Source: Pseudobdellovibrionaceae bacterium (GTDB lineage: Bacteria > Bdellovibrionota > Bdellovibrionia > Bdellovibrionales > Bdellovibrionaceae). Taken from it: a stretch of 53,168 bases of DNA. A program made the position numbers and the translations under genes. Positions 11,382 through 37,222 of this stretch are shown here, one piece after another (position 1 is the stretch's first letter; every line of letters begins with the position of its first letter). The stretch covers positions 1 through 53,168 of the forward strand of contig JBMOJS010000001.1 in assembly GCA_049315665.1 (NCBI GenBank), in the 5' to 3' direction. The notes beneath the pieces are model-generated. The model saw only the letters and a list, made by a program, of their open reading frames with translations, was not told the origin of the DNA and did no database searches.

Positions 11382-11457
11382 GATCCGCTAGCTCAGCTGG
11401 TAGAGCACTTCACTTTTAATGAAGGGGTCGATGGTTCGAATCCATCGCGGATCACCA
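11382..11457 (+). tRNA. tRNA-Lys (anticodon UUU)
   Basis: Cloverleaf readable by eye. Acceptor gatccgc/gcggatc, anticodon loop cuUUUaa, T-arm ggttcgaatcc, encoded CCA. Confidence 0.93.
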
Positions 11458-11468
11458 ATTTTCTAGTT

Positions 11469-11544
11469 GTTCCCATCGTCTAGTGGCCTAGGACACCTCC
11501 CTTTCACGGAGGATACAGGGGTTCGAATCCCCTTGGGAACGCCA
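11469..11544 (+). tRNA. tRNA-Glu (anticodon UUC)
   Basis: Acceptor gttccca/tgggaac, anticodon loop cuUUCac, T-arm ggggttcgaatcccc, encoded CCA. Close to the canonical bacterial tRNA-Glu. Confidence 0.93.
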
Positions 11545-21180: not shown

Positions 21181-21361
21181 TTGGGAGGCTGTTGGAAGAT
21201 TCGAATAATTCAGCTATGACGCGCCGAGTACCAATAGATTTGCACATCCGTGCCTGCGGTTAAGGACCGCTGGCTACCATTTTTGAAGCAATACTCAGTA
21301 ATATTTAATAATTGAATTCTTAAGCATGTTAGGGTCTACTCAAAGGCCATCAGGGGATCCT

Positions 21362-21805: not shown

Positions 21806-21857
21806 ATAACCAAAAGCGCAGGTTATAATTCCATTGCTTTGGCCTTGCCAACTCTGC

Positions 21858-22775: not shown

Positions 22776-23106
22776 AGTCTTTAATGAAATACAGTGTCAC
22801 ACCTGATGATGAGGTCGCGAGGTCAAGTACGAACCTTCGTCCCTGAAGATAAACGAACAAATTTGATTTTGAACCCATCACAGTCGGTGAAATCGCCAAA
22901 TCACTTCTAATATATTCAATCGAGAATGAATTTTTAGTTCCCAGGACAACCTTCTCGGGCTCAGAGGGAAAATCTAAAACGGTGCCTTTCGGTGATATGT
23001 AAATGGTGGCCACACTCTTTTCACAAAGTTTAATAGTTTTGACGTTCTCTGCAAATACTTTTGATGACAAGCAAAGGGCCAGAATCACTTGAATCAAGGC
23101 AATCAT
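22735..23106 (-). CDS. T4SS VirB9/TrbG N-terminal-domain-like protein
   Basis: Signal peptide. Pattern ATIYISPKGTVLDF..VVLGTKNSFSIEY...ISP...SNLFVYLQGRRFVLDL resembles the VirB9 N-domain. Only 123 aa, so there is no C-terminal domain. Position fits trbG. Confidence 0.45.
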   Translation of the reverse strand: MIALIQVILALCLSSKVFAENVKTIKLCEKSVATIYISPKGTVLDFPSEPEKVVLGTKNSFSIEYIRSDLAISPTVMGSKSNLFVYLQGRRFVLDLATSSSGVTLYFIKDCDADKVLAKKNGK

Positions 23107-23639
23107 TTGTCCTCCTTGTCTTCAATTTGATTGATCGAACTAATAATGAGGCCGTATGGATTTGATTCCGTCCGGTTTGATTTCTGCACGACTACTTTTA
23201 GATTGAGCGAAAGTGCTGATCTAATTTTTCCGACAGAAAGTAGCCGATCTGTAGTTACCAAAATTTCTTTTCCATCAGATTTTACATCCTGAACTAGAAT
23301 TCGTTGTTGAATCTGGCGCTGCTTTAGGGTCATTTGTTCTTTCTCGCGTGAAACCGTTTCTTCAATAGAAAGAAACCCTTCTTTTAAGTAACCGTTGGAG
23401 TCAAATCGCATGGAAAGCGCTTCGACCAAAAAGGCTTCGATTTCATTTTTTGTCGGATCAATGGGCTTTGCTTGAAGCGGACGAGAGAAGCATCCCCGCT
23501 CAATGACGGGCAAATCGCGAGCCGCAAGTCCACCAATCACAAACAATTGTACGATCGATACAAGCGCCAAGACAAGGGTCGCAATTTTAAGTGTCACATT
23601 CTGAGCTGCAGTTTTAGCCCAAGCAGTTGTGAATTTCAT
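23103..23639 (-). CDS. T4SS VirB8/TrbF-like protein
   Basis: Single N-terminal TM, a ~130-aa periplasmic domain, and a C-terminal NPYGLII motif resembling the VirB8 NPxG. Position fits trbF. Confidence 0.55.
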   Translation of the reverse strand: MKFTTAWAKTAAQNVTLKIATLVLALVSIVQLFVIGGLAARDLPVIERGCFSRPLQAKPIDPTKNEIEAFLVEALSMRFDSNGYLKEGFLSIEETVSREKEQMTLKQRQIQQRILVQDVKSDGKEILVTTDRLLSVGKIRSALSLNLKVVVQKSNRTESNPYGLIISSINQIEDKEDK

Positions 23640-23671
23640 TTTCCCTCCAAGATTTATTTATTACGCCCAAT

Positions 23672-24616
23672 TTAAGAATCGCTCTGGACAGGCTTTTCTT
23701 GTGGGGCTTGCAATCGTTTTGAAAACTGATTTTTTACAATTCCTGGAGCGGTCTTCGCGCCTTTATAGGTTTTTTTCGTTCCTTGCCAAGCTTTGCTCGC
23801 TCCCCATCCATAGGCTTTTTTTGTTCCTTTGGATGCGAGTCCTGCTAAGGCCCCAGGACTTGCCAGTCCGGCTGACAATCCAATGGCAGAAAGGCCAGCC
23901 GTTTGACTTGCAACGTTTGAAAGAGCTCCAGATATTAGATTTCGAACAACAATGGGTGTGAGAAGAATTGAAAATGCCAGCATTAATGTCAAAGCCAAAA
24001 GCGTAATGAAGTTTTGCCCCTTGGCTTCAAAATTATGTAAAGCCGTGCTCCATAGTAGTGTGCCTAGAACGGACCACACAATTTTCCAGGCAGCAATTTC
24101 AAAAAGTGTTCGGAATAATCCCCCGGTCATTGCTGCTGTTTGAGGCAAAATATAAAATGCGATCATGATGGGTGAAAAAATATAAAGAAGAACCAGGCAG
24201 TAAACAATAGCCGCATCAAAAAAGAAAACCGTGAAATACAGAATAAAATAAGCCAGGATCGCTACCACCGAAAGCAGGGTGTCGCCAAGTGAGGTCCACG
24301 ACCATGAGTGTTCCTTGAATGTCGCGCCTGCGGTTTTAAGGACTGCCTTATAGTTGTTGATGCTACCAAGGTGATCAGAGACTGCATCCGCGACTGCGGC
24401 AATCCAATTTGATATCTGAGGATATGCAATCAGAAGTATTGCCGCAATGAGTGCTCTACCAACTAACTGTTGAAAGGCCGGAACGCCACCAATGGGCATT
24501 TTAAAATATTCGATCAATACACCAATCACTAGCAGAAGAACAGCTAGCGCATAGAATATCGACACGAAAAATGTATGAATCTCTTTTGCCTGTGATGAAA
24601 TCCAAGAAATATCCAT
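23672..24616 (-). CDS. T4SS VirB6/TrbL-like polytopic membrane protein
   Basis: 314 aa with at least 6 hydrophobic helices and a G/A/K-rich C-terminal tail. Position fits trbL. Confidence 0.6.
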   Translation of the reverse strand: MDISWISSQAKEIHTFFVSIFYALAVLLLVIGVLIEYFKMPIGGVPAFQQLVGRALIAAILLIAYPQISNWIAAVADAVSDHLGSINNYKAVLKTAGATFKEHSWSWTSLGDTLLSVVAILAYFILYFTVFFFDAAIVYCLVLLYIFSPIMIAFYILPQTAAMTGGLFRTLFEIAAWKIVWSVLGTLLWSTALHNFEAKGQNFITLLALTLMLAFSILLTPIVVRNLISGALSNVASQTAGLSAIGLSAGLASPGALAGLASKGTKKAYGWGASKAWQGTKKTYKGAKTAPGIVKNQFSKRLQAPQEKPVQSDS

Positions 24617-24627
24617 AGCGTTAAGTC

Positions 24628-25314
24628 CTATTCAAATCGTGGGAGCTTAAATTGCGGTTCTGCTCCGGCAAGAGCCGCGTTAATATTGTCAGCACCAGCC
24701 ACCATTTGACGGGTTTGATCTTTATCCTTTCGATTTTGCAGCGCCAGGGTTTGTGCTTGAAGCTTGAGACCAGTCGCTTGGGTCCTAAGCATTTCGTTTT
24801 GAAGATTCAGCATAACCCCAATTGACTGGGCTGTGAGTTTCGCAGCCCCTCCGGGGGATACGGAATGACTCTGTGATTTGATCAGTTCACCAATTTCGTC
24901 AATCATCGTCGTGTATTTATAGATGGAGTTATTGAGCGCAACGGCTTCAGCGATACTCTGATCCGTATCTTTTTGAACCCTGGCATCATGTGAATCGACC
25001 ACAATGCCGTAAATGCTTTCAATCTTTAATAGGGCATCAGACGCTTTTTCCCAGTCCTTATAAAGTCCGGGATCAGTATTTGGACCAATTGTTCGAACAA
25101 GGTTCAGCGAGTCGTTGATACCGCGATTGATGTCGCGGACTAGGTTTAAGTTGTCGCGCCCGGTATTTAAAATACTTTGCAGTTGGGCTAGTTGCTCAAG
25201 GGCATTTATCAATATTTTAGCTAGAATAATATTTTCTTCCCCAAACATGCTGGCCCGAGATTGAGGAACACAAAACATTATCACTGTAGTTGCAATTGCT
25301 ATTGTCTTTTTCAT
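24628..25314 (-). CDS. T4SS TrbJ/VirB5-like secreted helical protein
   Basis: Signal peptide, ~200-aa helical/coiled region. Position between VirB4 and VirB6 analogues. No diagnostic motif. Confidence 0.4.
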   Translation of the reverse strand: MKKTIAIATTVIMFCVPQSRASMFGEENIILAKILINALEQLAQLQSILNTGRDNLNLVRDINRGINDSLNLVRTIGPNTDPGLYKDWEKASDALLKIESIYGIVVDSHDARVQKDTDQSIAEAVALNNSIYKYTTMIDEIGELIKSQSHSVSPGGAAKLTAQSIGVMLNLQNEMLRTQATGLKLQAQTLALQNRKDKDQTRQMVAGADNINAALAGAEPQFKLPRFE

Positions 25315-27728
25315 CGAACCACCTTTTGGGATGCAGATATCCCTTTTGGATATTGCTTTGACATCATTTTAAGAATTTCAAATTGTGGAAGACCAGGCTC
25401 ATTAAGTCGCAAGGTTTCAATAGCTGAAAGATCTCGAGGGTCCGTTGTTGCAATCCAAAGTTCAAGGGGTGTGGGTTCAATCACTGCGATGGTTCTACGT
25501 TCTGGTCCCGCAACAAGAAAAGCCTCAGAAAATTCACCTTTTTCTTGGTGAAGAGACTGAATAAGAGCCACTTCGTTATCGTTGAGCCCCAATGCTTCCT
25601 TCATTTTTGTGAAGTCACTCTGGTTTTGCATCAGAATCCATTTGACTGAACAGTTTGGAAGCAGGGCTGATGAAATTTTTGAATTTAAAAAATCCAAAAG
25701 ATCCTGACTGATGGCCGTGGCTGAGCAGTAGTATTTTCGAACCGTTCTAAAAATTTCCTCGATGAAAACAAGACCGGCTTCATCCTTAAGTAGCTTCCAG
25801 CACTCGTCAAAAACAATAAACTTCATTTTTGATCGGTCGCGCTGAACTTCTCGCCAAACCAGGTCTGTAATAATATATAAACAGACCCCTTGAAGATCAG
25901 GGTAACTTTCTAAACCCTTCAAATCAAAAGTGACTATGTCTCTTTGAAACTCTATCGTCGTTTTTTGATCTAGAAATTTTCCATAAGGAGTATTCCCGCA
26001 CCATGGGGCCAAGATTTTTCCATAAGTCTGAATTTCTTTTTCAGGGTGTTTTAATAAGATTTCGCGAAGGTCTGATATTCTTGGATTTTTCGAAGTTTGG
26101 TAGACTTTCTGAACAGCATCTTCAATTTCAGCTCTTGCCAGTTTTGGAATTCGGTCTGAGCCCTCTTCCTTGGTCATAAGTTCAACAAGACCCACAATAA
26201 ATTTAATCTTATGGGATGAGGGTTTTGTTTCACCAGGAACAAGATCAAATGGATTCACCGATAGTTGATCGTCGACTCCAAGCTCAACGTATTGTCCGGA
26301 TAGGTTCTCTGTCAGTTTTCGATATGATCCACCAATGTCGATAAAAAATACCTTTGGATTTTCTTTGAGCATTTGTAGTAGCAACAAATTCGTCATGAAT
26401 GACTTTCCTGACCCTGACCCACCGCTAATTAATTGATTGGCGTTAGAGAGCGAGCTGTCGAAAATGTTCAAAGCCGTTAGACTTCCCATTCTAGATTTTA
26501 GCAAAATACTGGGTGTTTCGTGCCCGGGCCAAGGACCATATAGCGGAATCAAGTCACAAAGATTTGATGTTTTGATCCGCCTTGAACGTTCTTTTGACCT
26601 AGCGTTGGGAAGTGAAACTTGCGAAAAAATATCAAATGCTGCCAAGGTTTCAGTCATAGCTTCAGCACCGCCAAGTTCCCTGAATTTTGCAAGAGTCATG
26701 TCCACTTGATTTTCTAGATCGCTTTCCGATTCACTTTGTAGTAGCACCGTGATTGAGACATGAAATACTTTTTGACCTTGGGCGATCATTTGTTCAAGTA
26801 AGACTTCAAGATCCTGAAGCTTCGCATTGCTCTCGATGTCTGAAACACCCGTGTGTTTTCCTACTACCATGGAAAAGGCAATTCGCCTTTGAATTTGCAG
26901 ACTTTCGATTTCTTTTGTTTGATCCGGCACATGAATGGTAGCGAGCAGTCTTGATTTAAATGGAAGCTCACGAAGTTTTGCTGCCATCGATGCAAAAGTT
27001 TGATCTGGAAGTGCTTTAAGGGACAACACTCGAAAGTGTGTTGCCCCAATGACAAATCCGCTAAGATTGATTCCTACATCGGAAAACAAAATACTCTGTC
27101 TGACCTCTTCAGGATCATAGGAACTAAAAGGAATTCGTCGGGATGGATTCCACTGCATATACAACAGTTCAGCGATGTCGTTCGCAGCCATTGATTGCGC
27201 TTTAACACCTAAGGCACTCAGTCCTTGAATAATGTTTTCCTTCAAACGCAAAGTGATTTCTATTTCATGGGCAAGTTGTTTCTCTGAAGTCTCTTGAAAT
27301 AATTTTTCCCTTGAAAATAGCGTTGGTTTTGAAAGTAAATTTTGTGAAAGTGATTTTCTAACAACGACTTTTAATCGGTGGGTTGGAATCTGCCCCTCAT
27401 CGTCCGAAGCGCGAAGTAAGGCCACTCTTTCATCACAGAGAGACTTAGCTAATTCATTGTTTGCGTTCGCTGCGAGCTTTTGATGGCAGGTGATAATTTT
27501 TTCATTTCCTGGTACAATATCCTGTATAAATTGAATGTCAATTTTTGAAGGCAAACTGTTTAGGAACTGAGCTACGTTTTCTGAAAAACTATTGATACGT
27601 TCATCACTCCAAGTGCTGACGTCCACTGGAACGCAATTCAATAAGAACCCTAGAGACCCGTCAGAATAAATGATTAAGTCCTTTTCGAAACCCCAAATTT
27701 GCAAGTTATCGGCTAAAGCATAAGTCAT
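25311..27728 (-). CDS. virB4: T4SS VirB4/TrbE ATPase
   Basis: 805 aa. Walker A GGSGSGKSF, Walker B FIVFDECWKLL, and C-terminal ..ATAISQDL... Confidence 0.9.
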   Translation of the reverse strand: MTYALADNLQIWGFEKDLIIYSDGSLGFLLNCVPVDVSTWSDERINSFSENVAQFLNSLPSKIDIQFIQDIVPGNEKIITCHQKLAANANNELAKSLCDERVALLRASDDEGQIPTHRLKVVVRKSLSQNLLSKPTLFSREKLFQETSEKQLAHEIEITLRLKENIIQGLSALGVKAQSMAANDIAELLYMQWNPSRRIPFSSYDPEEVRQSILFSDVGINLSGFVIGATHFRVLSLKALPDQTFASMAAKLRELPFKSRLLATIHVPDQTKEIESLQIQRRIAFSMVVGKHTGVSDIESNAKLQDLEVLLEQMIAQGQKVFHVSITVLLQSESESDLENQVDMTLAKFRELGGAEAMTETLAAFDIFSQVSLPNARSKERSRRIKTSNLCDLIPLYGPWPGHETPSILLKSRMGSLTALNIFDSSLSNANQLISGGSGSGKSFMTNLLLLQMLKENPKVFFIDIGGSYRKLTENLSGQYVELGVDDQLSVNPFDLVPGETKPSSHKIKFIVGLVELMTKEEGSDRIPKLARAEIEDAVQKVYQTSKNPRISDLREILLKHPEKEIQTYGKILAPWCGNTPYGKFLDQKTTIEFQRDIVTFDLKGLESYPDLQGVCLYIITDLVWREVQRDRSKMKFIVFDECWKLLKDEAGLVFIEEIFRTVRKYYCSATAISQDLLDFLNSKISSALLPNCSVKWILMQNQSDFTKMKEALGLNDNEVALIQSLHQEKGEFSEAFLVAGPERRTIAVIEPTPLELWIATTDPRDLSAIETLRLNEPGLPQFEILKMMSKQYPKGISASQKVVR

Positions 27729-28045
27729 CAGAAATTTCCTTTAAGTTTTGGGGGTACGGCTGTGTTTGTTGAGTCTTGAAAAGCTGAGAGATATTTTGGC
27801 TGCGCATAAAACTTCCCCAGATGAACAAGATAATTTTCAGGTTTGCCGCGCTTTCCGATTCTTAAAACAATAGCAAAAGCCGCAACTGGTCCCCATACCA
27901 ATGCAAGTTTGTAGTTGGTCTGACCAAAACTAAAATTTAAAATTGAAAGCAAAAGAAAAATTGCAAGCACATCAGGAACTTCGAATCCCATGATCAGAAG
28001 TTTTTTTTCCAGATTTTGACTTGTGGGCTCTGAACGCAAGGCCAA
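27728..28045 (-). CDS. T4SS VirB3/TrbD-like small membrane protein
   Basis: 105 aa with two hydrophobic segments. ATGA overlap with the virB4 start. Confidence 0.45.
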   Translation of the reverse strand: MALRSEPTSQNLEKKLLIMGFEVPDVLAIFLLLSILNFSFGQTNYKLALVWGPVAAFAIVLRIGKRGKPENYLVHLGKFYAQPKYLSAFQDSTNTAVPPKLKGNF

Positions 28046-28098
28046 ATTGTAAACTCCTTGAAAAGATAAAGGGGCTCTTGAGATTGCGCAAACGATCG

Positions 28099-28389
28099 TT
28101 AATTAACGATGCCGCGAATGAAAGTCATAATGCTGGGAGCACCAAAGCCGATGATCATTCCAATTATTGCGAGCCACAGATGAGATCTTGCGCCGGGATT
28201 GCCAGTAAAAAATGAAAAGGCCGCAAACACAAGACCTAGAACTGCGCACAGGGGTAAAATCGTATTGATAAGCTTAGATTGAATGGCCCCAAGGGTTGAC
28301 TCGACACTGCAATATCCTAGGACAGGAACCAGTAAAACCGACAACGCAATAATAAAAATAAAAGCTGAATTTGACAACTTCATAAGCAC
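28099..28389 (-). CDS. T4SS pilin, VirB2/TrbC-like
   Basis: 96 aa. Long signal/leader followed by two hydrophobic helices (LPLCAVLGLVFAAFSFF...WLAIIGMIIGFGAP), the classic pilin layout. Confidence 0.55.
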   Translation of the reverse strand: MLMKLSNSAFIFIIALSVLLVPVLGYCSVESTLGAIQSKLINTILPLCAVLGLVFAAFSFFTGNPGARSHLWLAIIGMIIGFGAPSIMTFIRGIVN

Positions 28390-28500
28390 TTCCTTTTTTA
28401 AAAGTTAATTTTTGAGAGGCTTGATGTTGCTTAAAAAGATGCTCTGAATTGAAAAGTTTTGAAGTAGAGTTTGCATCAGTGATAATGTACCTAAGATAAA

Positions 28501-28530
28501 CCAGATCGTTTTTTATGATCAACGACCTGG
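28501..28530 (-). terminator. hairpin (possible attenuator/terminator) between the unknown-gene block and the pilin gene
   Basis: On the minus strand: ccaggtcgtt-N10-aacgatctgg, a 10-bp stem with one G-U pair, followed only by ttt. Confidence 0.3.
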
Positions 28531-28555
28531 CTGTTTAGAAGATATTTTACAAAAT

Positions 28556-29128
28556 TTATCTTTCCCACTTATCTATAACTTCAATTTCGTCAATAGTAAC
28601 AGTTTTGCTTTTTTGATGATTTTTTACATGAAACAATGTTGTAAGTCTTGAGTTATAATCGTTATTAAAACTTAGATAACAGTGACCTTTGTGAACTTTC
28701 GCAGTTGTTGCGGGTGATAGTTTTAAAGGGGCCGCTTCAGAATACGCTAACCATGATACTGGTAATTTTACTCGCTCGTCGGCATGTGTAGACTTTATAT
28801 CTGAACAGCTTTTTTTGCCTAGATCATAAATAACACTGCTATCACCAATCACAAGATTTACTCTGAAATAGTCTTCAAAATCTTCGCCGGCCTCAAATAA
28901 AATATCCGGTTTATTTTTGGTTAATTTCACATCTTGACTCAGAAAACGAAAACTGTAGCTGGCGGAAACATAGTCCCCACCTGTGAATCTTGAAATGAGT
29001 GTTATTTCATTGCCAGGCTCCGATCTCGTAGCGCAGTTTTGAATATTTTCCGAATCTACGGCAAATCCGCGATTGGAAAGCAAAGAAATGGCTATAGCCA
29101 CTAAACTCTTAAATTTTAAACTTTTCAT
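28556..29128 (-). CDS. secreted hypothetical protein
   Basis: ATG at 29128 behind aaggag. Signal MKSLKFKSLVAIAISLLSNRGFA. No family recognised. Confidence 0.5.
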   Translation of the reverse strand: MKSLKFKSLVAIAISLLSNRGFAVDSENIQNCATRSEPGNEITLISRFTGGDYVSASYSFRFLSQDVKLTKNKPDILFEAGEDFEDYFRVNLVIGDSSVIYDLGKKSCSDIKSTHADERVKLPVSWLAYSEAAPLKLSPATTAKVHKGHCYLSFNNDYNSRLTTLFHVKNHQKSKTVTIDEIEVIDKWER

Positions 29129-29196
29129 AACATGATCTCCTTCTTTTTGGTTGTTGTGAATGTGACTTTTAAAATTGGACTCGTAATTCAATAAAT

Positions 29197-29526
29197 TCAT
29201 TTTTCTGGTGGTAGTGGAAGTCCTGCCAGTTGAATTGCGACTTTGCATTCTTTGTCGCTCCAACCCCATTGGGGAAGTGGATTTGTTACAACTTTTTCCA
29301 GTTGGTCATAGGTTAAGTGCGGGTGAATTAACATCCGCGGCAGTTTTTTATTTTCTAGCCATGAATTAATAGTTTGTAAGTATTGTAAATTTTTATCGTC
29401 AGTAGTTCCCGTATAGGCAATTGTATCAATTGCTACTCGAAACTGAACCAATCCGACTAAAATTGCAGTATCGCGCAGTTCACATCGATACAAAACTGTA
29501 ATAGGGGCTTGGGTTTTAATTTTCAT
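29197..29526 (-). CDS. hypothetical protein
   Basis: 109 aa. Its start abuts the stop of the upstream gene (29526/29527). Confidence 0.45.
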   Translation of the reverse strand: MKIKTQAPITVLYRCELRDTAILVGLVQFRVAIDTIAYTGTTDDKNLQYLQTINSWLENKKLPRMLIHPHLTYDQLEKVVTNPLPQWGWSDKECKVAIQLAGLPLPPEK

Positions 29527-29925
29527 TTAAGCCACCACTCCACCATCGACGCCAAGCAAGCTGTCGACCGTAACTTTATCTGGAAAAAGGCTCATGAAAA
29601 CCCGCTGACGTGGAAACGTGAACTGAATTTCAAGGTGTTTTTTAAGATCGCGAGATACGAACCCAAATCCAACAGGCCTGCGAAATATCGGATCAGAATC
29701 ATTTCCAAGTTTTTTAGCAAAAAGAGTAAAATTGCCATCCTCACTTCGATTTGAAGTGAGGTAAAAAACTTCCCTTGGAAAAGCCCACATCTTCACTATG
29801 TAATAGAGCTTCGCAGGGCCTTCGACTCCATAAGCTTCTCCGGCTTGAAGTTCATGACAGATAACTGAGCCTTTGCGGTAGCCCGTATAGATATGAAATC
29901 GACCCTTGATGTTTGAATTTTCCAT
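29527..29925 (-). CDS. hypothetical protein
   Basis: 132 aa. No family recognised. Confidence 0.45.
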   Translation of the reverse strand: MENSNIKGRFHIYTGYRKGSVICHELQAGEAYGVEGPAKLYYIVKMWAFPREVFYLTSNRSEDGNFTLFAKKLGNDSDPIFRRPVGFGFVSRDLKKHLEIQFTFPRQRVFMSLFPDKVTVDSLLGVDGGVVA

Positions 29926-29937
29926 TTTCCCCCCGGG

Positions 29938-30309
29938 TTATTTAAAATTAGAGTATATTCCGCTTCGCATCTGCAGCTCACGGTTCTTTTCTTTCGCTTC
30001 ATTAAAGCTCTGTTCAATTCTTCTCGCATTTTGAATGTCTTTTTCAAGCCCATCAATCATTTCAGCGATCAGGCTTTTCAGTTTTTCCCAAGTGTGAAGC
30101 AAGTGGGTTTTTTGACTCAAAGTTTTTGCTTTTGCAGTCATCGACTTTTCAATTGTTTGAAAATTCGATACAAGAACTCGAAAATCTTCGACGGGTCGCT
30201 TATTTTCAGGAATTGATTCTAGACTGACTGCCTTTGTCATGTGTTCGTTTTGTTCAATATCAGCTAACAGAGAATCCAACGTTGGCATTTTTAATACTTT
30301 TGAATTCAT
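29938..30309 (-). CDS. hypothetical coiled-coil protein
   Basis: 123 aa, helical K/E/Q-rich. Confidence 0.45.
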   Translation of the reverse strand: MNSKVLKMPTLDSLLADIEQNEHMTKAVSLESIPENKRPVEDFRVLVSNFQTIEKSMTAKAKTLSQKTHLLHTWEKLKSLIAEMIDGLEKDIQNARRIEQSFNEAKEKNRELQMRSGIYSNFK

Positions 30310-30312
30310 AAA

Positions 30313-30633
30313 TTAGGCTCCCTTTTTTGCTTCTGTTGATTGGTCGTCAGAATCAGCCGCTGACTTTTTCGAGATGAGCATTTTACATTGGCTCCGAAGC
30401 TGTGTGGGTTTTGGTATGAAAGTTTCTTTTGCGGCTTGATTCAAATCATCCATTCCCCCACGGGATACGTCCCAGGCCAATGAGTCCCAGTCGCACGATG
30501 AACACAAAACATCTGGAATAAAATGAATCAGATCGCAATCCCCACATTTTGGACACTTCTTAAAATAATCAACTGGCTTAGTTCGCTTTTCCGCCTTCTC
30601 AAAAATGTCTACAGTTCGTAATTCCACTTTCAT
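30313..30633 (-). CDS. zinc-ribbon hypothetical protein, first gene behind the sigma54 promoter
   Basis: ATG at 30633 behind gggggtg. CPKCGDC...CSSCDW. Confidence 0.5.
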   Translation of the reverse strand: MKVELRTVDIFEKAEKRTKPVDYFKKCPKCGDCDLIHFIPDVLCSSCDWDSLAWDVSRGGMDDLNQAAKETFIPKPTQLRSQCKMLISKKSAADSDDQSTEAKKGA

Positions 30634-30690
30634 AACATCACCCCCAGAGTCAGTTGTTGATATAAAAAATTGCTTTATATCTATTGCTAG

Positions 30691-30706
30691 GGCAACCATC
30701 GTGCCA
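30691..30706 (-). promoter_or_regulatory. sigma54 (-24/-12) promoter
   Basis: The minus strand reads TGGCACgatggTTGCc, an exact GG-N10-GC spacing matching 15 of 16 positions of TGGCAC-N5-TTGCW. It lies ~58 nt upstream of the ATG at 30633, and a sigma54 activator gene is adjacent and divergent. Confidence 0.7.
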
Positions 30707-30792
30707 CCTGATCATCTAAAGCCTGATAAAGTGTTAAATACATGAAATACATTTGAAATTTAATTTTCAGTGCATTTCTAAAAGTATCAAAA

Positions 30793-30864
30793 ATGAGTTC
30801 GAAGTTCGAAACTACGAACCAGATGAGTTCGATTTTATAGCTATATAGATTTTATATTACGAAC
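30793..30864. promoter_or_regulatory. cluster of GTTCGAA / ACGAAC repeats (candidate activator binding sites)
   Basis: atgagttcga occurs twice (30793-30802 and 30823-30832), plus agttcgaa (30803-10), tacgaac (30813-19) and ttacgaac (30857-64). The cluster is 90-170 bp upstream of the sigma54 promoter. Confidence 0.35.
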
Positions 30865-30968
30865 TAAAAAGTTTGCTTTCAAACATCAGCTCAGTTAAAT
30901 ATTTTTATCACTAGGGTGGGTAGCAGACACTTTTATAAGCCCACCGCGAAACACAATAGAGGGTTAGG

Positions 30969-32507
30969 TTGGAAGAATTATCAATGACAAACACAGTTTC
31001 AATTCTGGTTATCGACGATAGCAAAGCGGATCGCTTAGCCAACATTATTGAGTGCAGAAGGATCTTTAAAAATATTCCTGATGTTGAATTTCACATCGAA
31101 GAATCGGCGACTTTGGAAAATGCATTTCAGAAGGCATCAGAGAGTACGTTTCACATTATTCTTTTGGATAAAGACCTTGGAGTTGATTCAGAAGGTAAAC
31201 GTATTTCTGGAATTGATAATATTCAAACACTTAAAGCCCTTCAGCCCCATGCACAAATATTTATGGTCACAGCTGACGAGAGGTATGAGGAAATTGTAGC
31301 TGCAATGAAGCTTGGTGCCTACGACTATTTTTTAAAGAGTTCAAATCCCGTAAAAGTTGAATACCGTTCTGTCATGCTAGAGCGCGCCTTCGAACGATCG
31401 GTTGAAGACCTTAAAGCTACGATGACAAGATCCACTAAGACAGGACTGTATTCTGAGTTTGTCAGCCAAGCGCCAGTTATGAAAATGCTCGATCAAAAAA
31501 TCAAGGCCATTGCTGAGTCATCACGGCCAGTTTTAATTCTTGGTGCTACAGGCCTTGGCAAAGGTGCCACTGCACGCAGAATCAGTCAGTTTCGCGCGAA
31601 CTTTCTAAAGCAAACCTCAAGACACTTTGTAAATATTAATATTGGAGCCATGTCAGACACCCTTGCTCAAAGCGAACTTTTTGGGCAGGACGCCTATTCA
31701 TATACAGGATCAGGTTCAAAAATGAAACCCGGTCTACTTGATGTCGCAAAAGGCGGCGACATCTTTCTTGATGAAGTTGGCGATGCGTCTGCCGAAATGC
31801 AATCTAAGCTTTTAAAAGTTATTGAAGAAAAGCAATACCTCCGCGTTGGCGGCAGACAGCCCATTCAAACCAACGCTCGGTTTATTTTTGCCACGAATAA
31901 AAATATGCGCGAGCTGGTGCGAAGTGGAAAGTTTCGCGAAGACTTATATATGCGCATGCAAGCATTTGAAATTGAAATCCCGGCTCTTGAGGAACGAAAA
32001 GAGGACCTTCCGCAAATTATTGAAGCTTGCCTACGAAATGCCCTGACCGAGGTAAAACATAAGCAAATCTCTATTAGTGATTTCCCTGAAGATCTGATGC
32101 GCTACTTGATGCGTGATAATATCCCTGGCAATATTCGGGGAATAGAAAATGACATTACAAAGTTAGTTTCTTTCATTCCGGTGGACTCACTTGGTAGGCC
32201 GATTCTGAAAGAGTGGAAAAACATTCTTGGTGGAAATACGCCTTTCAGAAAATCGCGTTCAAAAATGAGCCTTGATGATTTGCTATCGGCTGATACAGAA
32301 TTGGTTGGCTCTTCGTTTCCTGGCTATAAAAAAGCCCAAGAGATTTTTGAGAAAAAAATGATCGAAGAAGTTTTAGAGAAGACTGGGAATATGGTAACGG
32401 CAGCAAAGCAACTTAAAATTGCGAAGTCGACTTTAAGTGTAAAAATGAGACACCTCAATATCAAGACTCCAAAGGAAGTTAGGTACCATGAATCAAAAGC
32501 AACTTAA
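30969..32507 (+). CDS. sigma54-dependent response regulator (REC + AAA+ activator + Fis-type HTH)
   Basis: REC (ILVIDDS...ILLDKDLG...MVTAD), AAA+ (LGATGLGKG, ELFG, IFLDEVGD, FREDLYMRM), C-terminal HTH (AAKQLKIAKSTLSVKMRHL). Start is TTG at 30969 or ATG at 30984. Confidence 0.88.
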   Translation: MEELSMTNTVSILVIDDSKADRLANIIECRRIFKNIPDVEFHIEESATLENAFQKASESTFHIILLDKDLGVDSEGKRISGIDNIQTLKALQPHAQIFMVTADERYEEIVAAMKLGAYDYFLKSSNPVKVEYRSVMLERAFERSVEDLKATMTRSTKTGLYSEFVSQAPVMKMLDQKIKAIAESSRPVLILGATGLGKGATARRISQFRANFLKQTSRHFVNINIGAMSDTLAQSELFGQDAYSYTGSGSKMKPGLLDVAKGGDIFLDEVGDASAEMQSKLLKVIEEKQYLRVGGRQPIQTNARFIFATNKNMRELVRSGKFREDLYMRMQAFEIEIPALEERKEDLPQIIEACLRNALTEVKHKQISISDFPEDLMRYLMRDNIPGNIRGIENDITKLVSFIPVDSLGRPILKEWKNILGGNTPFRKSRSKMSLDDLLSADTELVGSSFPGYKKAQEIFEKKMIEEVLEKTGNMVTAAKQLKIAKSTLSVKMRHLNIKTPKEVRYHESKAT

Positions 32508-32736
32508 AAACTTCATCTTGAAGCTCAACCATGATTTGGCTGGGCAGCGGCGGTGCTTAGATTTGGTGAATGTACTTTTACATGAGGGATCTGCAAGCTT
32601 AGACGATGCAAAGAGATTGTTAGTTGAAACGATTGTGCAATTTGATTTAGCTCAAAAGACTATTTCAAGTGTCGAAATCGGGTCTTTTGAAGAAACAAAA
32701 CCAAAGAGAGTAATCTCGCAAAATAAGGAGGCCTAA
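32488..32736 (+). CDS. small helical hypothetical protein (possible Hpt-like phosphotransfer protein)
   Basis: 82 aa. aggaag lies 9 nt upstream. Overlaps the regulator gene by 20 nt. Contains NHDLAGQ, reminiscent of the Hpt HxxKG motif. Confidence 0.4.
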   Translation: MNQKQLKNFILKLNHDLAGQRRCLDLVNVLLHEGSASLDDAKRLLVETIVQFDLAQKTISSVEIGSFEETKPKRVISQNKEA

Positions 32737-32960
32737 TGGAAATTACGTCAACAGCATTGGTAAGTCTTGCTTGCCTATTATCGAACGGTCCAGCCGATTC
32801 AAAGAATGCGCAAGATTTTATAAAAAATTTGAATCAAGAACAAGTTGTTGTGATTCGACAGATTGTTCATAGCGGCGCATGTTTACCAAAAGCATTCGAA
32901 AACAAGATTCAGTCTGGATTTAGTAGAATAGAGAATAACGCTCCAACGACTGACCTTTGA
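32736..32960 (+). CDS. small hypothetical protein
   Basis: 74 aa. Strong SD aaggagg 4 nt upstream. TAATG stop/start overlap with the preceding ORF. Confidence 0.45.
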   Translation: MEITSTALVSLACLLSNGPADSKNAQDFIKNLNQEQVVVIRQIVHSGACLPKAFENKIQSGFSRIENNAPTTDL

Positions 32961-32967
32961 GTTTTGC

Positions 32968-34467
32968 ATGGCACCTAAAAAGATATATACAGGAGCAGCC
33001 CTTCTGGGGCTGCTAACATTGGGGGTTTTCATTTTCTTAAAGGAAGGAAGCATGAAATCAAAGCAGATTGATGTTGTAAGGACATCATTTCGAAAAATAG
33101 AACAGTTTCCCGACCCGACAGAAATTAATACTTCTGGAAAGTGGTATTTACTCAATCACATTTCAAGTCCACTTATTGAGTATAGCCATAAAACGTCATC
33201 ATTTAAGCCTTTGATAGCAAGTACGTGGGAAATCAACGATTCGATTTATACTTTTCACTTGAATCCATTGGCAAAGTTTAGCGATGGTTCAATGATAAAA
33301 CCTTCTGACGTTGGCCAATCCATTAAAAGAATTTTAGTCAAAAAGAAATCGACCCATTTTCCACTTTGGAATCATGTTAAAGGCTGCGATCAATTAAATA
33401 ACATGAATCAGAATTGTGATGGCTTAAGCTGGGACGATGATAAAAACATAGTCACTGTGAAGTTAAAAGGAAAAAGTGATTCGTTTTTATTGCAGATTTC
33501 TTCACCGGAAAGTGGGATTTGGGCTGCGCTTGATATTGATTCAGAATGCAACCTTGCACCCACGAAGTACAGCGGCCCATATAGTCTAGAAGGTTTAAAG
33601 GTCGATACCAATAAAGAGTTCATTTTAAATAGAAACTCAAATTCCATTTTGCAGACTGAGTTTCCAAGCTCACCAAATAAAATTGTTGTAAAATCAATGG
33701 AGAGAAGTGAAATTGAAAAGGCCATAGTTGATGGCAACGCTGATATTTTTATTGGCGATTTCATACCGTACAATGATTTTGACTGGGAACAAATGAAGGT
33801 TGGCATTCACTACACGACACCATCATCGATCATTTATTTTTTCGGTCTTAATTCTGAGAAAAAAATTGGCCAAGATCTTTTGGCTAGCTTAGCAACAGTT
33901 CCCGAGAAACGGCTTTTGCGGGCTGACACCTTTTTACCTTTTGCGCCCGAAGTTGCTTTGAACCAAACTGATTATGCAGAAGCATTGCCACTAAAATCAT
34001 CTCGAATACTAAAAGTGGCAGCACCTGGGTTTTATTTTAAAGATCAAGCCCTTGAGTTTCTTAAAAGTGCTGCACAGAAAATTGGAATTGATCTTGAGGT
34101 AACAAAGATTGAAAGGGCTGAATATTTTGAACTAGTAACATCAAAAGAAGATTTTAAAAGTAAATATGACTTTCTGCTTGGCAGTTATGTTGCGTCTGAG
34201 CGCTATCCAGCGGTTCAACTCAGGTTTTTAACCGGGGAAAGACAATCACCTGTAAATTTGTCCGACGTTGAGCAGCCTGATCAAGACCCAGTTAAAATTA
34301 AGCGACTGAAGGATTATCAAAAGTGGCTTTTGAAGTCTCAAACTGTTGTACCTATTTATTTTATGAGAAGCCACATTGTATCTGCTCCATATATTGATGT
34401 TGGTGATCAACCGATCACCGACGCTGATATTCAACTTTGGAGACTAACAAAAAAGGATGCTCAATGA
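32968..34467 (+). CDS. membrane-anchored solute-binding protein, family 5 (peptide/nickel type), orphan
   Basis: N-terminal TM (GAALLGLLTLGVFIF). PLIASTWEINDSIYTFHLNPLAKFSDGSMIKPSDVGQSIKRIL matches the SBP_bac_5 N-lobe signature. No permease or ATPase nearby. Confidence 0.65.
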   Translation: MAPKKIYTGAALLGLLTLGVFIFLKEGSMKSKQIDVVRTSFRKIEQFPDPTEINTSGKWYLLNHISSPLIEYSHKTSSFKPLIASTWEINDSIYTFHLNPLAKFSDGSMIKPSDVGQSIKRILVKKKSTHFPLWNHVKGCDQLNNMNQNCDGLSWDDDKNIVTVKLKGKSDSFLLQISSPESGIWAALDIDSECNLAPTKYSGPYSLEGLKVDTNKEFILNRNSNSILQTEFPSSPNKIVVKSMERSEIEKAIVDGNADIFIGDFIPYNDFDWEQMKVGIHYTTPSSIIYFFGLNSEKKIGQDLLASLATVPEKRLLRADTFLPFAPEVALNQTDYAEALPLKSSRILKVAAPGFYFKDQALEFLKSAAQKIGIDLEVTKIERAEYFELVTSKEDFKSKYDFLLGSYVASERYPAVQLRFLTGERQSPVNLSDVEQPDQDPVKIKRLKDYQKWLLKSQTVVPIYFMRSHIVSAPYIDVGDQPITDADIQLWRLTKKDAQ

Positions 34468-35543
34468 ATTTGAGTGGCTGTCAGATCTTTAATTTGGATA
34501 GTACTTTTGACGACTCGATCGCCGTAGCCAATGAATCTGATTGCAGCAATCTTCTTTTAGATTGGATCGTCAATAATTCGCTTTTAAAATCTGAAATTTT
34601 TGAGAGTGGTCTTGAAATTTCAAATCAGCGATTTTTCCGCTTTTCTATTGCCGCTACGGATCTTGATGGCAACCAGTATCATGGCTTTGGCAGATCAAAA
34701 GATCGCTTGAAGGCTGCGTCCATCGCAGCTGGAGAAATCATCGAGCGATATGTAGCAAAAAAAGTTCTAAAATCTGCTAAGCCCTTTTTAGTAAAACACC
34801 ATGTTTGTGTTCAGGATGCGGAAATCTCAGTCACTGAGTCAGGTCATGAGGTGCCACTGCCGTCGTCGGGATTTCACTCCAGCAATGGATGGGCTGTTCA
34901 CTTTTCTCTAAAAAAAGCTGTTGAGAACTCTACTCTTGAAGCTTTGGAGCGGCATACACTTTTGTATTCATATCTACATAGTGGTTGGAATGGATTTAAG
35001 AGAGACAGCCCAGTTCCATTTGGTAATCACGTGCTCACGCCATATGTGTCGCGTTTTAATTTTGGTGGTTTTGGCGCCGGAATTGTTACAACACAGGGAA
35101 GAGAGTTTCCTGGGTGCACATTTGGATACCTTTGCGATGATGTGGCCACTATCAACGGGTCTCAAAAGTGGTTGAATGCTTTTTTTGAAAGTTACGGCCA
35201 GTGGGAGTCGCTGTCTTTAAACAATGTCCAAAATCAGAATGAAAATTTGCTATCGCAATATCAGAAGTACTTTTTAACAACTTCCCAGCAGAGCGAGGTC
35301 AGGGATCTAATTATAGCTCCGAGTAAGAATAGTGCAAAAATTAAATCAAACATCTTGATGTTCGATTTGAAGCAGGCGTTGGGGCTTCCGTTTCCATTTT
35401 ACGCGGCCTACACATTTGGTGGAGATCTTATCCCACTGTTTTTTCGACAAAAGCTATCTATACAAGAAACGGTATTGCTACAACAAACTTTGAAATACTG
35501 GAGTCTTCCAACAAGTCTTCCGGAGTACCACCCAGTTTTATGA
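34464..35543 (+). CDS. YcaO-like family protein (standalone)
   Basis: ATGA overlap with the SBP stop. GFGRSKDRLKAASIAAGEIIERY and SSNGWAVHFSLKKAVENSTLEALERHTLL match the two conserved YcaO ATP/Mg-binding segments. Confidence 0.65.
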   Translation: MNLSGCQIFNLDSTFDDSIAVANESDCSNLLLDWIVNNSLLKSEIFESGLEISNQRFFRFSIAATDLDGNQYHGFGRSKDRLKAASIAAGEIIERYVAKKVLKSAKPFLVKHHVCVQDAEISVTESGHEVPLPSSGFHSSNGWAVHFSLKKAVENSTLEALERHTLLYSYLHSGWNGFKRDSPVPFGNHVLTPYVSRFNFGGFGAGIVTTQGREFPGCTFGYLCDDVATINGSQKWLNAFFESYGQWESLSLNNVQNQNENLLSQYQKYFLTTSQQSEVRDLIIAPSKNSAKIKSNILMFDLKQALGLPFPFYAAYTFGGDLIPLFFRQKLSIQETVLLQQTLKYWSLPTSLPEYHPVL

Positions 35544-37222
35544 AAAACTTCAATTTAATCAGCAGATTTATAGTTGGTAGTATGATCCTGGGCCTAGTGG
35601 TGCCGATGATCTATCACATTGGGCTCAATGTGGCCCGGCACAACCACTTTAACAAGCTCACAGAGCAGGTGTGCAAGGCAATTGAACCTCGAATACAGAT
35701 TGGTGCGCATCGTGAAGCTTTGGAATATCTGAAGAGTGCCATAGTCAATCAAGGAATTGATGCAGAGCCTTTGATTGAGTTCAAAGATCACGGCAATCTT
35801 GTGACGCCGCCCATTTTGAATGCTGGATCAAAATTCCGCGAGAGTTGTGAGTTTCAAGGCATCACTGGTGTTGAAGCCAGCGTTTTTTACAACCATGTAC
35901 CGGTGCTTAATATTTTGTATCTCTATTTATATATTATATCTGTTCCGACTTTGTTCTTAGTCTTTGTTTGGGCTAGGCGTGGAGTTATGCAATTGCAGAG
36001 AAAAGTTGCTGATCTGATTGAAGCTCAAATGAAACAACTTTTGGGAATCGGCGCAGCTTCAGAGGCGCCAAAGACGAGCCTATTCTACAAAATTTTTGAT
36101 CTTGAGATACCGCTATTAACATATCTGAAAAGACATATTGAAAATCTAGAATCGGACTTACAAAGCTACTCAAAAAAAATAGCCGATCAGCAAAAGCGCG
36201 AAGTTCTTATGGATGTTGCCGCTCAAATGGCCCATGATATAGTAACGCCAATTTCAAATTTGCAGATGATCCTACAGAACGATGATGCGAATAAAAATCA
36301 GAATTTAATTCTGCTGGAGCTTGGACAAATTAAAAATCTTTCTGAAAAGTTGCTTCGTGAATATAGAGGCGAGTCTTCAATGGCTGAACAAAAACGTGAA
36401 ACGATTGATGTCGTCGAAAGCATTCACTCAGCCCTAGAAAGTGCGAAGGTGTTCGCCAAAAGTATGAGACCTGTCGTATTTAACTTTGATTGCAAAAAGA
36501 ATGAAAAAGTTGAACTCGTAGGTGATCGAAGCGATTTTATTGCCGCACTTTCAAATATCTTAAGAAATTCAGTGGAGGCCTTAGAAAAAGACAATGGTGT
36601 CATCACTGTAAGGCTCCTCAAGGATTTTCAAAGTTTGAAAGTCCATGTCTCTGACAATGGGTGCGGAATTAAAGAAGAAAATTTATCGAAAATATTTGAA
36701 AACAAATTCTCGGTTGGAAAGAAGAATGGCACTGGCTTAGGTCTCTTTCAGGTAAAGTCCATGATTGAAAGTATGAAGGGCGCAATTCATGTCGAATCAA
36801 AAATTGGTATTGGCACAACTATAGGGCTTACTTGGCCTCTTTGCTCGGAATCATTTACGAATGGTTTAAACCAAAAAACTATCGCAACCCAACGGCCCGA
36901 TTTAATTTTGATTGATGATACAAACTCAAATCATGTCAGATGGGATATCGAAGCAAGGCGTGCTCAGAAGAAATTGGCTTCGTTTCGATCTTTGGACGAC
37001 TTTAATTCTGCATCTCAAAACATCGATAGGGATACCCCCATTTTTGTCGATTACACTTTTGACAATGGACCGCACACAGGCAAGGAAATTGCTGAGCGCA
37101 TAGTTTCAGCGGGTTTTGAAAATGTGCATATTGCGACCGCCCTCCCGGTTGATCGTGTCGATAGGCCCACTGGAATCAAATCTGTTCGAGGTAAAGATTT
37201 TCCATTGGCAGTGCTTCTGTAA
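35540..37222 (+). CDS. hybrid sensor histidine kinase (2 TM + HisKA + HATPase + C-terminal REC)
   Basis: ATGA overlap with YcaO. H-box AAQMAHDIVTPISNL, N-box LSNILRNSVEA, G-boxes DNGCGI and GTGLGL. C-terminal LILIDD...IFVDY...IATA receiver. Confidence 0.85.
   Translation: MKNFNLISRFIVGSMILGLVVPMIYHIGLNVARHNHFNKLTEQVCKAIEPRIQIGAHREALEYLKSAIVNQGIDAEPLIEFKDHGNLVTPPILNAGSKFRESCEFQGITGVEASVFYNHVPVLNILYLYLYIISVPTLFLVFVWARRGVMQLQRKVADLIEAQMKQLLGIGAASEAPKTSLFYKIFDLEIPLLTYLKRHIENLESDLQSYSKKIADQQKREVLMDVAAQMAHDIVTPISNLQMILQNDDANKNQNLILLELGQIKNLSEKLLREYRGESSMAEQKRETIDVVESIHSALESAKVFAKSMRPVVFNFDCKKNEKVELVGDRSDFIAALSNILRNSVEALEKDNGVITVRLLKDFQSLKVHVSDNGCGIKEENLSKIFENKFSVGKKNGTGLGLFQVKSMIESMKGAIHVESKIGIGTTIGLTWPLCSESFTNGLNQKTIATQRPDLILIDDTNSNHVRWDIEARRAQKKLASFRSLDDFNSASQNIDRDTPIFVDYTFDNGPHTGKEIAERIVSAGFENVHIATALPVDRVDRPTGIKSVRGKDFPLAVLL

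Follow-up and report, generated by a model that had tools for sequence, protein, structure and literature searches.

A conserved sigma-54-type promoter and a divergent activator operon at the type IV secretion genes of a mobile element from a Bdellovibrionota-like host

The divergent control region and its counterparts in related elements

The locus considered here is a 350-bp intergenic region between positions 30633 and 30984 of a 53,168-bp stretch of DNA, the whole of which we call the window and both strands of which are covered by our motif counts. The region separates a minus-strand run of 13 genes encoding type IV secretion system (T4SS) proteins from a divergently transcribed operon that is headed by the gene for a sigma-54-dependent activator. 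A sigma-54-type -24/-12 promoter lies at 30691..30706 on the minus strand, 57 nt 5' of the ATG at 30633-30631 that opens the first gene of the run. It reads TGGCACGATGGTTGCC, with GG at 30705-30704 and GC at 30693-30692. Its core, TGGCACGATGGTTGC (30706-30692, minus strand), is the only exact match in the window to TGGCACG-N4-TTGC; all 11 core positions agree and the GG and GC dinucleotides are ten bases apart. Dinucleotide shuffles lead one to expect 0.02 such matches, and just two of 100 shuffles contained any. The version of the motif with two mismatches occurs at chance level (10 found against 12.4 expected), so that only the exact core match is informative. An initial annotation had described a near-consensus sigma-54 promoter with exact -24 GG/-12 GC spacing, and both the sequence and its standing as a unique exact core bear this out. 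When C30692 is taken as -12, transcription is predicted to start near 30680, giving a leader of 47 nt (30634..30680, minus strand), the start of which is inferred from the -12 spacing only. The Shine-Dalgarno sequence GGGGGTG at 30645-30639 precedes the ATG at 30633; the leader of about 45 nt given initially thus becomes one of about 47 nt, and its other coordinates hold.

Further upstream, an activator sequence composed of five GTTCG/CGAAC half-sites occupies 30793..30864, the half-sites starting at 30797, 30804, 30815, 30827 and 30860 (plus strand). The cluster is located 87-158 nt upstream of the promoter, and the half-site centres fall 93-156 nt upstream of the -24 T. It is the densest in the window, which holds 84 copies in all, and five copies within any 80-bp span were met in only one of 200 first-order Markov simulations. 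The 10-nt sequence ATGAGTTCGA is repeated exactly at 30793-30802 and 30823-30832, while the inverted repeat GTTCG-N6-CGAAC is found in exact form in the window solely at 30804-30819. Five GTTCGAA/ACGAAC-type copies and a 10-nt repeat, at a distance typical of enhancer-binding-protein sites, had been noted before; we recover the same positions, at a density that is rarely reached in simulation. In addition, an alignment of the close clade (alignment A4; seven elements with 69-100% activator identity) shows three kinds of conserved island in this region: the half-sites, a TCAAATAGTTA-like block and the promoter.

The gene facing the T4SS run (30984..32507, plus strand) encodes an NtrC-type sigma-54 enhancer-binding response regulator. 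All three Pfam domains of this class are found, namely the receiver (Response_reg, 4e-11), the AAA+ domain (Sigma54_activat, 1.1e-47, residues 166-336) and HTH_8 (1.3e-7), in agreement with the earlier description of the divergent neighbour as a sigma-54-dependent response regulator. No NCBIfam equivalog model is matched; the best is NtrC, at 229 bits against a cut-off of 559 bits.

Is this arrangement peculiar to one element? Homologues of the activator come from uncultured Bdellovibrionota, the named ones being Pseudobdellovibrionaceae, Pseudobdellovibrio and Bdellovibrio. The contigs that we inspected are L001-L007, L012-L017, L019 and the P0051 contig, whose activators are 89% to 33% identical to that of the window; scans of public collections gave one locus from genomes, with the activator, and two loci from metagenomes, with a profile of the zinc-ribbon protein encoded by the first gene of the T4SS run. 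In every contig inspected, the activator gene and a T4SS or tra-type operon are transcribed divergently. The relatives that entered the promoter comparison have activators 100% to 33% identical; from clade to clade their intergenic DNA is too different to align. Eight of these nine relatives retain the -24/-12 element. The exact core TGGCACGATGGTTGC is common to the window, L001, L002, L009 and L011, and the corresponding sequences are TGGCACGACGGTTGC in L016, TGGCACAAAGGTTGC in L014, TGGCATCGCGGTTGC in L017, TGGCACATTGGTTGC in L003 and L004, TGGCCTCTCGGTTGC in L005, TGGCATCTCGGTTGC in L006, TGGCACGCTTTTTGC in L013 and TGGCACAGATGCTGC in L019. The distance from the element to the start codon is 50-60 nt in the window and in six of the nine relatives (36 nt in L013, about 65 nt in L019), and this spacing holds for seven of the eight lineages measured for distance. 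At the score threshold of the comparison the window gives 22 hits, or about 2e-4 per position; a chance hit in a fixed 20-nt slot is thus expected in about 0.4% of lineages, and the recurrence is not due to chance.

Every lineage in which the -24/-12 element was found also carries a palindrome about 90-135 nt upstream of -24, the sequence of which changes from one clade to another. It is TTTCTTAAAC-N6-GTTTAAGAAA at -132 in L005 and a close variant of this type, TTTTCTAAAC-N6-GTTTAGAAAA, also at -132, in L006; L003 has GTTTCCA-tt-TGGAAAC, L007 has CAATGTTT-c-AAACATTG and L013 has AATCAAAAA-N6-TTTTTGATT. The recognition helix of the activator is identical where the site type is shared, as with AKSTLSVKM in the elements that have GTTCG sites, and different where the site type differs. 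Such co-variation of helix and palindrome is as predicted for a cognate pair of activator and site. The spacer between the activator sites and the promoter (30707..30792, minus strand) is AT-rich (73%) and contains a degenerate site resembling that of integration host factor (IHF), TTTCATGTATTTA, about 41 nt upstream of -24. A perfect copy of the IHF consensus WATCAANNNNTTR is present at -40/-41 in L001, and L006, L007 and L016 have it there with a single mismatch; the IHF-like site may serve to bend the DNA. Based on these comparisons, we consider it likely that the window contains a functional, activator-dependent and conserved sigma-54 promoter, served by an enhancer-binding protein, in front of the T4SS gene cluster.

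The region 30633-30984 contains no sigma-70-like match above chance, no Rfam family matches the leader or intergenic region, and a second sigma-54 promoter, for the activator operon (30984 onward), was sought in the window and not found. The 5' end of the predicted leader can fold into an AT-rich hairpin (arms 30659-30666 and 30674-30681) that is not distinct from shuffles (z = -0.7). A short hairpin at the same place recurs in L003, L010 and L014, where a conserved AAGAAGC-like motif forms its 5' arm; its z values, from -0.3 to -2.0, are likewise not significant against shuffles. A 128-aa open reading frame (ORF) from an ATG at 30699 (30697-30699, in the N4 spacer of the promoter) was rejected as a gene-calling artefact: L003, L005, L006 and L013 are without that ATG and the proteins align from 30633, so that the upstream start is spurious. 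In L001 (9418-9795) the gene caller took the equivalent start, giving 125 aa, which suggests that database entries for the zinc-ribbon family may bear false N-termini. Other sigma-54-like motifs were seen in the related contigs. In L001, two of them face each other (18392-18582; TGGAACGTCTCTTGCT, minus strand; TGGCATCTACCTTGCT, plus strand), with a metal-repressor gene on one side and a czc-type efflux operon on the other. In L007 the sequence TGGCACTCAAATTGCT (17975-17990) lies about 100 nt 5' of a gene for 363 aa that is followed by four genes of 113-115 aa, and could mark another sigma-54 target of this element.

The T4SS gene run and the mobile element

The first gene behind the promoter (30313..30633, minus strand) encodes a 106-aa zinc-ribbon protein with four cysteines (CPKCG...CSSCDWDS), which has no match in Pfam. 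Every relative checked for it has it in first place (alignment A1). The rest of the run (21858..30309, minus strand) starts with four more small ORFs and continues with genes for a VirB2/TrbC-like pilin (28099-28389; TrbC/VirB2, 2e-4, a weak match), a VirB3-like protein (27728-28045) and a VirB4/TraC ATPase (25311-27728; TraC-F-type, 1.1e-83, below the curated cut-off). Four further proteins are encoded between VirB4/TraC and TrbI/VirB10 (21858-22775; TrbI, 2.6e-21), and a TrbL-like protein (23672-24616) is recognized by orthology. Between 30633 and 21858, neighbouring genes mostly touch or overlap. A strong minus-strand terminator was sought in the run and none was found, and sigma-70-like matches occur there at chance level (25 found against 27.7 expected). 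We interpret the run as probably a single transcription unit.

A candidate coupling protein of the FtsK/SpoIIIE type (19717..21180, minus strand; FtsK_SpoIIIE, 1.2e-21) is encoded beyond the end of the run, from which it is separated by a plus-strand ORF (21326-21805). Its gene has an orthologous position in L001, L003 and L007, and a TrwB/TraG-D type is found instead in L006. A weak MobC-like match is located at 18811-19692 (2.5e-6, with a cut-off of 200 bits), and a DNA methylase gene follows the coupling-protein candidate and the MobC-like gene. The initial annotation had called the operon conjugation-associated. We agree that this is probable, given the VirB2-like pilin, VirB4/TraC, TrbI/VirB10 and the coupling-protein candidate; the relaxase that would complete the picture was not identified. 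An 823-aa protein (50242-52713) was considered as a relaxase and set aside, as it has no match in Pfam, NCBIfam, PADLOC or the PDB. The best-scoring plasmid T4SS relative, that of Myxococcus stipitatus pYRE, has no activator gene beside its T4SS, and a megablast search of 21000-33000 against PLSDB found nothing.

At the left end of the element (11382..13101), genes for tRNA-Lys and tRNA-Glu come first, and next is the gene for a large serine recombinase (11488-13101, minus strand); to the left of the tRNA genes there are housekeeping genes. The two tRNA genes span 11382-11544, and the recombinase ORF runs with its 3' end into tRNA-Glu. This edge is probably the integration site. A right-hand repeat of the tRNA region was sought in the window and not found, and the right end may lie beyond the contig. 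In its right part the element has genes for resistance-nodulation-division (RND) efflux, and also a defence candidate of the SIR2 type (PADLOC PDC-S65, 1.7e-128). The latter is split into overlapping ORFs (48428-48832 and 48792-50159) that match consecutive parts of the model, which could be due to a frameshift, a sequencing error or pseudogene formation. Another ORF of the element, of 192 aa (14947-15525, minus strand), has a short Flg_bb_rod match (3.9e-5) that is odd in this context.

The activator operon: sensor genes and a candidate signal

The operon headed by the activator gene ends with the gene for a membrane histidine kinase (35540..37222, plus strand), which has two transmembrane segments, the H-box MAHDIVTPIS, an HATPase_c domain and a C-terminal extension of about 120 aa. 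The extension shows a receiver-like pattern of DD, D, T and K motifs (alignment A5), and Pfam Response_reg gives a weak match (0.0044) in the L007 orthologue only. The initial annotation had proposed two-component control, which stands in so far as the activator operon does encode a kinase; this kinase, the binding protein, the peptide and the YcaO-like enzyme described below had all been missed. The binding protein (32968..34467, plus strand) is periplasmic and of the SBP_bac_5 family (peptide/nickel type, 2.2e-19), with an N-terminal membrane anchor or signal sequence. Genes for an ATP-binding cassette (ABC) permease or ATPase were not seen beside its gene in the loci examined. A binding protein without adjacent ABC transporter genes, placed beside a kinase, suggests a sensor pair in the style of LuxP/LuxQ.

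Directly behind the activator gene, and overlapping its stop codon, lies a gene for an 82-aa helical protein (32488..32736, plus strand) with an invariant His15-Asp16 (HDLxG; alignment A6). We regard this protein as a candidate for phosphotransfer, on inference only. An AlphaFold2 (AF2) model from the single sequence has three helices, with His15 just before the second, at a predicted local distance difference test (pLDDT) score of 64. The protein is absent in L013, whose kinase is without the C-terminal extension. The receiver-like pattern, together with the loss of the His-Asp protein exactly where the extension is missing, hints at a phosphorelay.

The next gene (32736..32960, plus strand) encodes a candidate precursor peptide of 74 aa, made up of a conserved N-terminal part of 55 aa, a variable linker and the C-terminal core APTTDL. 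The family includes 45 homologues with a C-terminal SPT[TS]D[LFY] core, which is present in two to three copies in P0152, P0155, P0161, P0168 and P0171-P0174. The homologues (P0129-P0174) are about 75-100 aa long, and the cores of P0168 read PSPTSDF...GSPTSDF...PTPTSDY. From its sequences the family looks like an undescribed, multi-core family of precursors of peptides that are synthesized ribosomally and then modified post-translationally (RiPPs). In every locus inspected for it, the peptide gene adjoins a gene for a divergent YcaO protein. In the window this gene (34464..35543, plus strand) encodes a 359-aa member of the YcaO superfamily. The window protein alone gives a weak match (E = 0.0014); eight of nine orthologues match Pfam YcaO (best 2.5e-13), and the profile of the YcaO-like proteins matches McbD (6gos_D) at 6.5e-6 over the ATP/Mg motif.

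The content of the operon varies between elements around a constant frame. Nearly all contigs inspected have the activator gene as the first of an operon that closes with genes for a periplasmic binding protein and a kinase; L012 departs from this, with other genes in place of the sensor cassette. Between the activator and the binding protein, the peptide and YcaO genes are present in the clade of the window and in L003, L005, L006 and L013, and a radical S-adenosylmethionine (SAM) enzyme is encoded in L007 and in the P0051 contig. The most distant case is L019 (8001-16974; activator 33% identical), where haem-oxygenase-like, major facilitator superfamily (MFS), ATP-grasp and short-chain dehydrogenase/reductase (SDR) genes are found and the binding protein is of the Peripla_BP_6 family. 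L019 keeps the activator, the binding protein, the kinase and a divergent tra operon with a -24/-12 motif; its tra genes look F-like, with a faint TraU match, a thioredoxin and zf-dksA_traR. Additionally, an rpoN gene with Sigma54_AID, CBD and DBD domains lies 15 nt after the cassette kinase in L013 (13647-15077), and this element seems to carry its own sigma-54. OLD/AAA_15-type and HNH genes follow rpoN there. Biosynthetic genes that recur between activator and sensor and are chemically exchangeable point to a signal made by the element itself. We therefore suggest, tentatively, that the cassette may be a self-signalling system that resembles quorum sensing.

A model of the transfer switch, its rivals and its relation to known systems

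We propose a model to rationalize these arrangements. The 350-bp region 30633-30984 is best explained as the divergent control region of an integrative conjugative element (ICE) in a Bdellovibrionota-like host. RNA polymerase with sigma-54 would sit at 30706-30691 as a closed complex. The element-encoded activator, once phosphorylated, would bind the five GTTCG/CGAAC half-sites (30797-30864), oligomerise, loop across the AT-rich spacer and open the promoter with ATP. Transcription would then enter the zinc-ribbon gene and the T4SS genes, from 30633 to at least 21858. The phosphoryl input would come from the kinase at the end of the activator operon (35540-37222), which is probably partnered with the periplasmic binding protein (32968-34467) and may act via the His-Asp protein (32488-32736). 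The likeliest ligand would be a product of the peptide gene (core APTTDL) after maturation through the YcaO-like enzyme. If the ligand is a peptide made by the element, expression of the T4SS would depend on the density of element-carrying cells, the signal turning transfer either on or off. Across the family the signal might be an SPT[TS]D[LFY] peptide modified by YcaO or radical SAM enzymes, and an ATP-grasp product in distant relatives; it would be relayed through the binding protein and kinase to the dedicated sigma-54 activator and on to the T4SS promoter, some elements bringing their own rpoN. It is possible, in our opinion, that Bdellovibrionota and related uncultured bacteria harbour a family of ICEs in which RiPP-based quorum sensing with a sigma-54 output gates horizontal gene transfer.

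Several observations weigh against this model. The sigma-54 contact (L1) loop of the activator reads YSYTGS and not GAFTGA. Among homologues it is [YN]S[FY]TG[SA], so that the FTG/YTG core is kept and the flanks differ; replacement of Phe by Tyr is tolerated in some activators, and changes in the flanks are unusual. The -12 part of the promoter is weakened in three relatives, namely L007/L008 (...TTGT), L010 (...TTGA) and L012, where it is degenerate; the promoter may be decaying, or may be read differently, in some lineages. The IHF-like site of the window has two mismatches. The 53-kb contig contains no rpoN gene, which Bdellovibrio bacteriovorus HD100 and Bacteriovorax marinus do carry (PMC3464611, PMC3526173). 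Within the T4SS run about 170 nt separate the pilin gene from the gene before it, and internal promoters for the structural genes are thus possible. No relaxase family was matched among the scanned ORFs of the window, the MobC-like protein being the only lead, and DNA transfer therefore counts only as probable. On the sensory side, the His-Asp protein matches no Pfam, NCBIfam or Hpt model and a PDB profile search returned only noise (E > 0.4). The extension of the kinase is not confirmed as a receiver, with a probability of 18.8% in an hhalign comparison with the activator receiver domain and an AF2 pLDDT of 52. No clear export signal is seen in the peptide, nor is an exporter or a protease encoded close to its gene.

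What else could the cassette and its promoter be doing? A serious rival to a self-made signal is an external ligand. The sensor pair would then respond to an outside cue, such as environmental or prey peptides or a metal, for instance nickel, and the peptide and YcaO genes would be co-transcribed cargo, for example for an antimicrobial RiPP. SBP_bac_5 proteins bind oligopeptides, nickel and opines, and the best NCBIfam matches of the binding protein, weak as they are, are nickel and metallophore binders. The lack of an exporter or leader protease beside the peptide gene would also fit this explanation, as would the peptide core, which is conserved and not diversified between elements, unlike typical pherotype systems. 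Against it stands the position of the biosynthetic set, which is always found between the activator and the pair of binding protein and kinase, while its chemistry changes from YcaO to radical SAM to ATP-grasp with MFS. A constant place combined with a changing chemistry fits a unit of signal and receptor better than random cargo, and we see the external cue as a rather unlikely source of the input.

A second rival accepts the sigma-54 promoter as real and restricts its reach. Transcription from the promoter would cover no more than the zinc-ribbon gene and a few small ones behind it, which could code for regulators or entry-exclusion-type factors, and the T4SS structural genes would be read from internal promoters, so that the link to transfer would be indirect. 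The first five genes of the operon have unassigned functions, the gap lies just before the pilin gene, and the coupling-protein gene is cut off from the operon by an ORF on the opposite strand. Conversely, the mostly abutting or overlapping genes, the lack of a convincing minus-strand terminator and the chance-level count of sigma-70-like matches between 30633 and 21858 argue for read-through, and the gene order behind the promoter is the same in all relatives. We judge this restricted reach to be unlikely.

A third possibility is that the T4SS delivers effectors, or takes up or releases DNA, for a predatory host, and that sigma-54 ties it to the predatory life cycle. The named relatives are predatory Bdellovibrionota, the window ORFs scanned gave no relaxase, and no VirB4 in the plasmid collection is more than 26% identical to that of the window. 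Set against this, the cluster lies within an element delimited by tRNA genes and by the gene for a serine recombinase; a DNA methylase, defence genes and variable cargo such as efflux genes (RND, czc) and IS21 are carried on it; a coupling protein (FtsK- or TrwB-type) is encoded, as is the weak MobC-like protein; and 1,868 of the 2,356 plasmid records with a VirB4 match are typed conjugative. A role outside conjugation therefore appears very improbable to us. Finally, that the motif is a chance match, or part of the coding sequence of the longer ORF that starts at ATG 30699 and whose equivalent start was used by the gene caller in L001, without promoter function, has almost nothing to recommend it beyond that ORF and the chance-level count of two-mismatch motifs, and is already contradicted by the comparative data, namely a position conserved in lineages that lack this ATG and proteins that align from the ATG at 30633, as well as by the expectation of 0.02 for an exact match, the strong Shine-Dalgarno sequence before that ATG and the adjacent gene for a cognate activator.

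What would the proposed wiring mean for the element? Conjugation spreads resistance and other traits, and the timing of transfer is set by the regulators of the element. To our knowledge, the known transfer switches, whether repressor/SOS, LuxR with acyl-homoserine lactones or the peptide pheromones of Firmicutes, all act at sigma-70 promoters. A sigma-54 promoter is silent until its ATPase activator fires, and would thus give the element an off state that is very tight, with just one dedicated input. About ten related elements show the scheme, with an exchangeable module for signal synthesis. The many elements of uncultured, Bdellovibrionota-type bacteria may thus represent a family of transfer switches still to be explored, and perhaps peptide signals of a new class. 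Moreover, the defined promoter, the activator sites and the candidate peptide are testable parts that could be moved to a tractable host. The initial annotation had regarded sigma-54 and two-component control as non-standard for conjugative elements, and in the searchable literature we indeed met no precedent: full-text searches did not find control of a conjugative T4SS by sigma-54 and an enhancer-binding protein. A 2017 review of ICEs has RpoN in a single reference, which concerns symbiosis genes, and names quorum sensing by PhrI/RapI and by TraR as the signal-dependent schemes that are known (PMC5812530).

The individual parts of the model have counterparts in several known systems. As in the clusters of the microcin B17 type, with McbD (6gos_D), a YcaO gene stands beside a small peptide gene, and the peptide has a leader-like part and a Ser/Thr-rich, sometimes repeated core. 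Unlike in those clusters, the YcaO protein is short (359 aa) and very divergent, and the genes are embedded in a two-component operon; of the usual partners of a YcaO cluster, that is an E1-like or RiPP recognition element (RRE) protein, a dehydrogenase, a protease and an exporter, none was recognised here. The TraR/TraI systems, in which acyl-homoserine lactones control transfer, are known from Ti plasmids. They share with the present elements the principle that element-borne genes for signal synthesis and reception gate the transcription of transfer genes in a Gram-negative host. They differ in having a LuxR-type one-component activator and sigma-70 promoters, where we find a predicted chain of kinase, activator and sigma-54 and another signal chemistry. 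The same type of control has been described for ICEMlSymR7A (PMC5812530).

In Firmicutes, conjugation is controlled by peptides. The pCF10 system, with its OppA-like PrgZ, is one example. The similarities are a small peptide that is encoded on the element and active through its C-terminal part, an element-encoded peptide-binding protein of the OppA family and an output in transfer genes. In the Firmicute systems the peptide is imported, the receptors are cytoplasmic and the promoters are of the sigma-70 type, whereas here sensing would be periplasmic and mediated by a kinase, with a sigma-54 output, and YcaO would modify the peptide. RapI-PhrI of ICEBs1 is another Firmicute system of this kind (PMC5812530). 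The other close parallel is the LuxP/LuxQ-LuxU-LuxO relay of Vibrio, and the NCBIfam models of LuxO and LuxQ give sub-threshold matches in the window. Both arrangements combine a periplasmic binding protein with a membrane kinase, here maybe with a receiver, and both have a small His protein (a candidate only in our case), a sigma-54 response regulator as output and signal-synthesis genes linked to the receptor. The differences are that the output here is a T4SS operon and not the Qrr small RNAs, that the binding protein is of the SBP_bac_5 and not the LuxP type, and that the cassette resides on a mobile element. In logic, the Vibrio relay and the Firmicute peptide pheromones appear to be the closest analogues, a likeness by which we do not claim membership in either.

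The nearest relatives of the promoter itself are the sigma-54 promoters of the NtrC/glnAp2 type with their upstream activator sites, other instances of which are PilR-pilA and XylR-Pu on the TOL plasmid. The consensus -24 GG/-12 GC, the inverted repeats about 100-150 bp upstream, the activator with receiver, AAA+ and HTH_8 domains encoded nearby, the AT-rich spacer and, in several relatives, the IHF-like site all belong to this type. The target, which is the T4SS operon of a mobile element, the loop YSYTGS and the five half-sites with a GTTCG-N6-CGAAC core set the present system apart. Apart from the contact loop, the promoter and the activator are ordinary members of the sigma-54/NtrC class; it is the wiring that is new.

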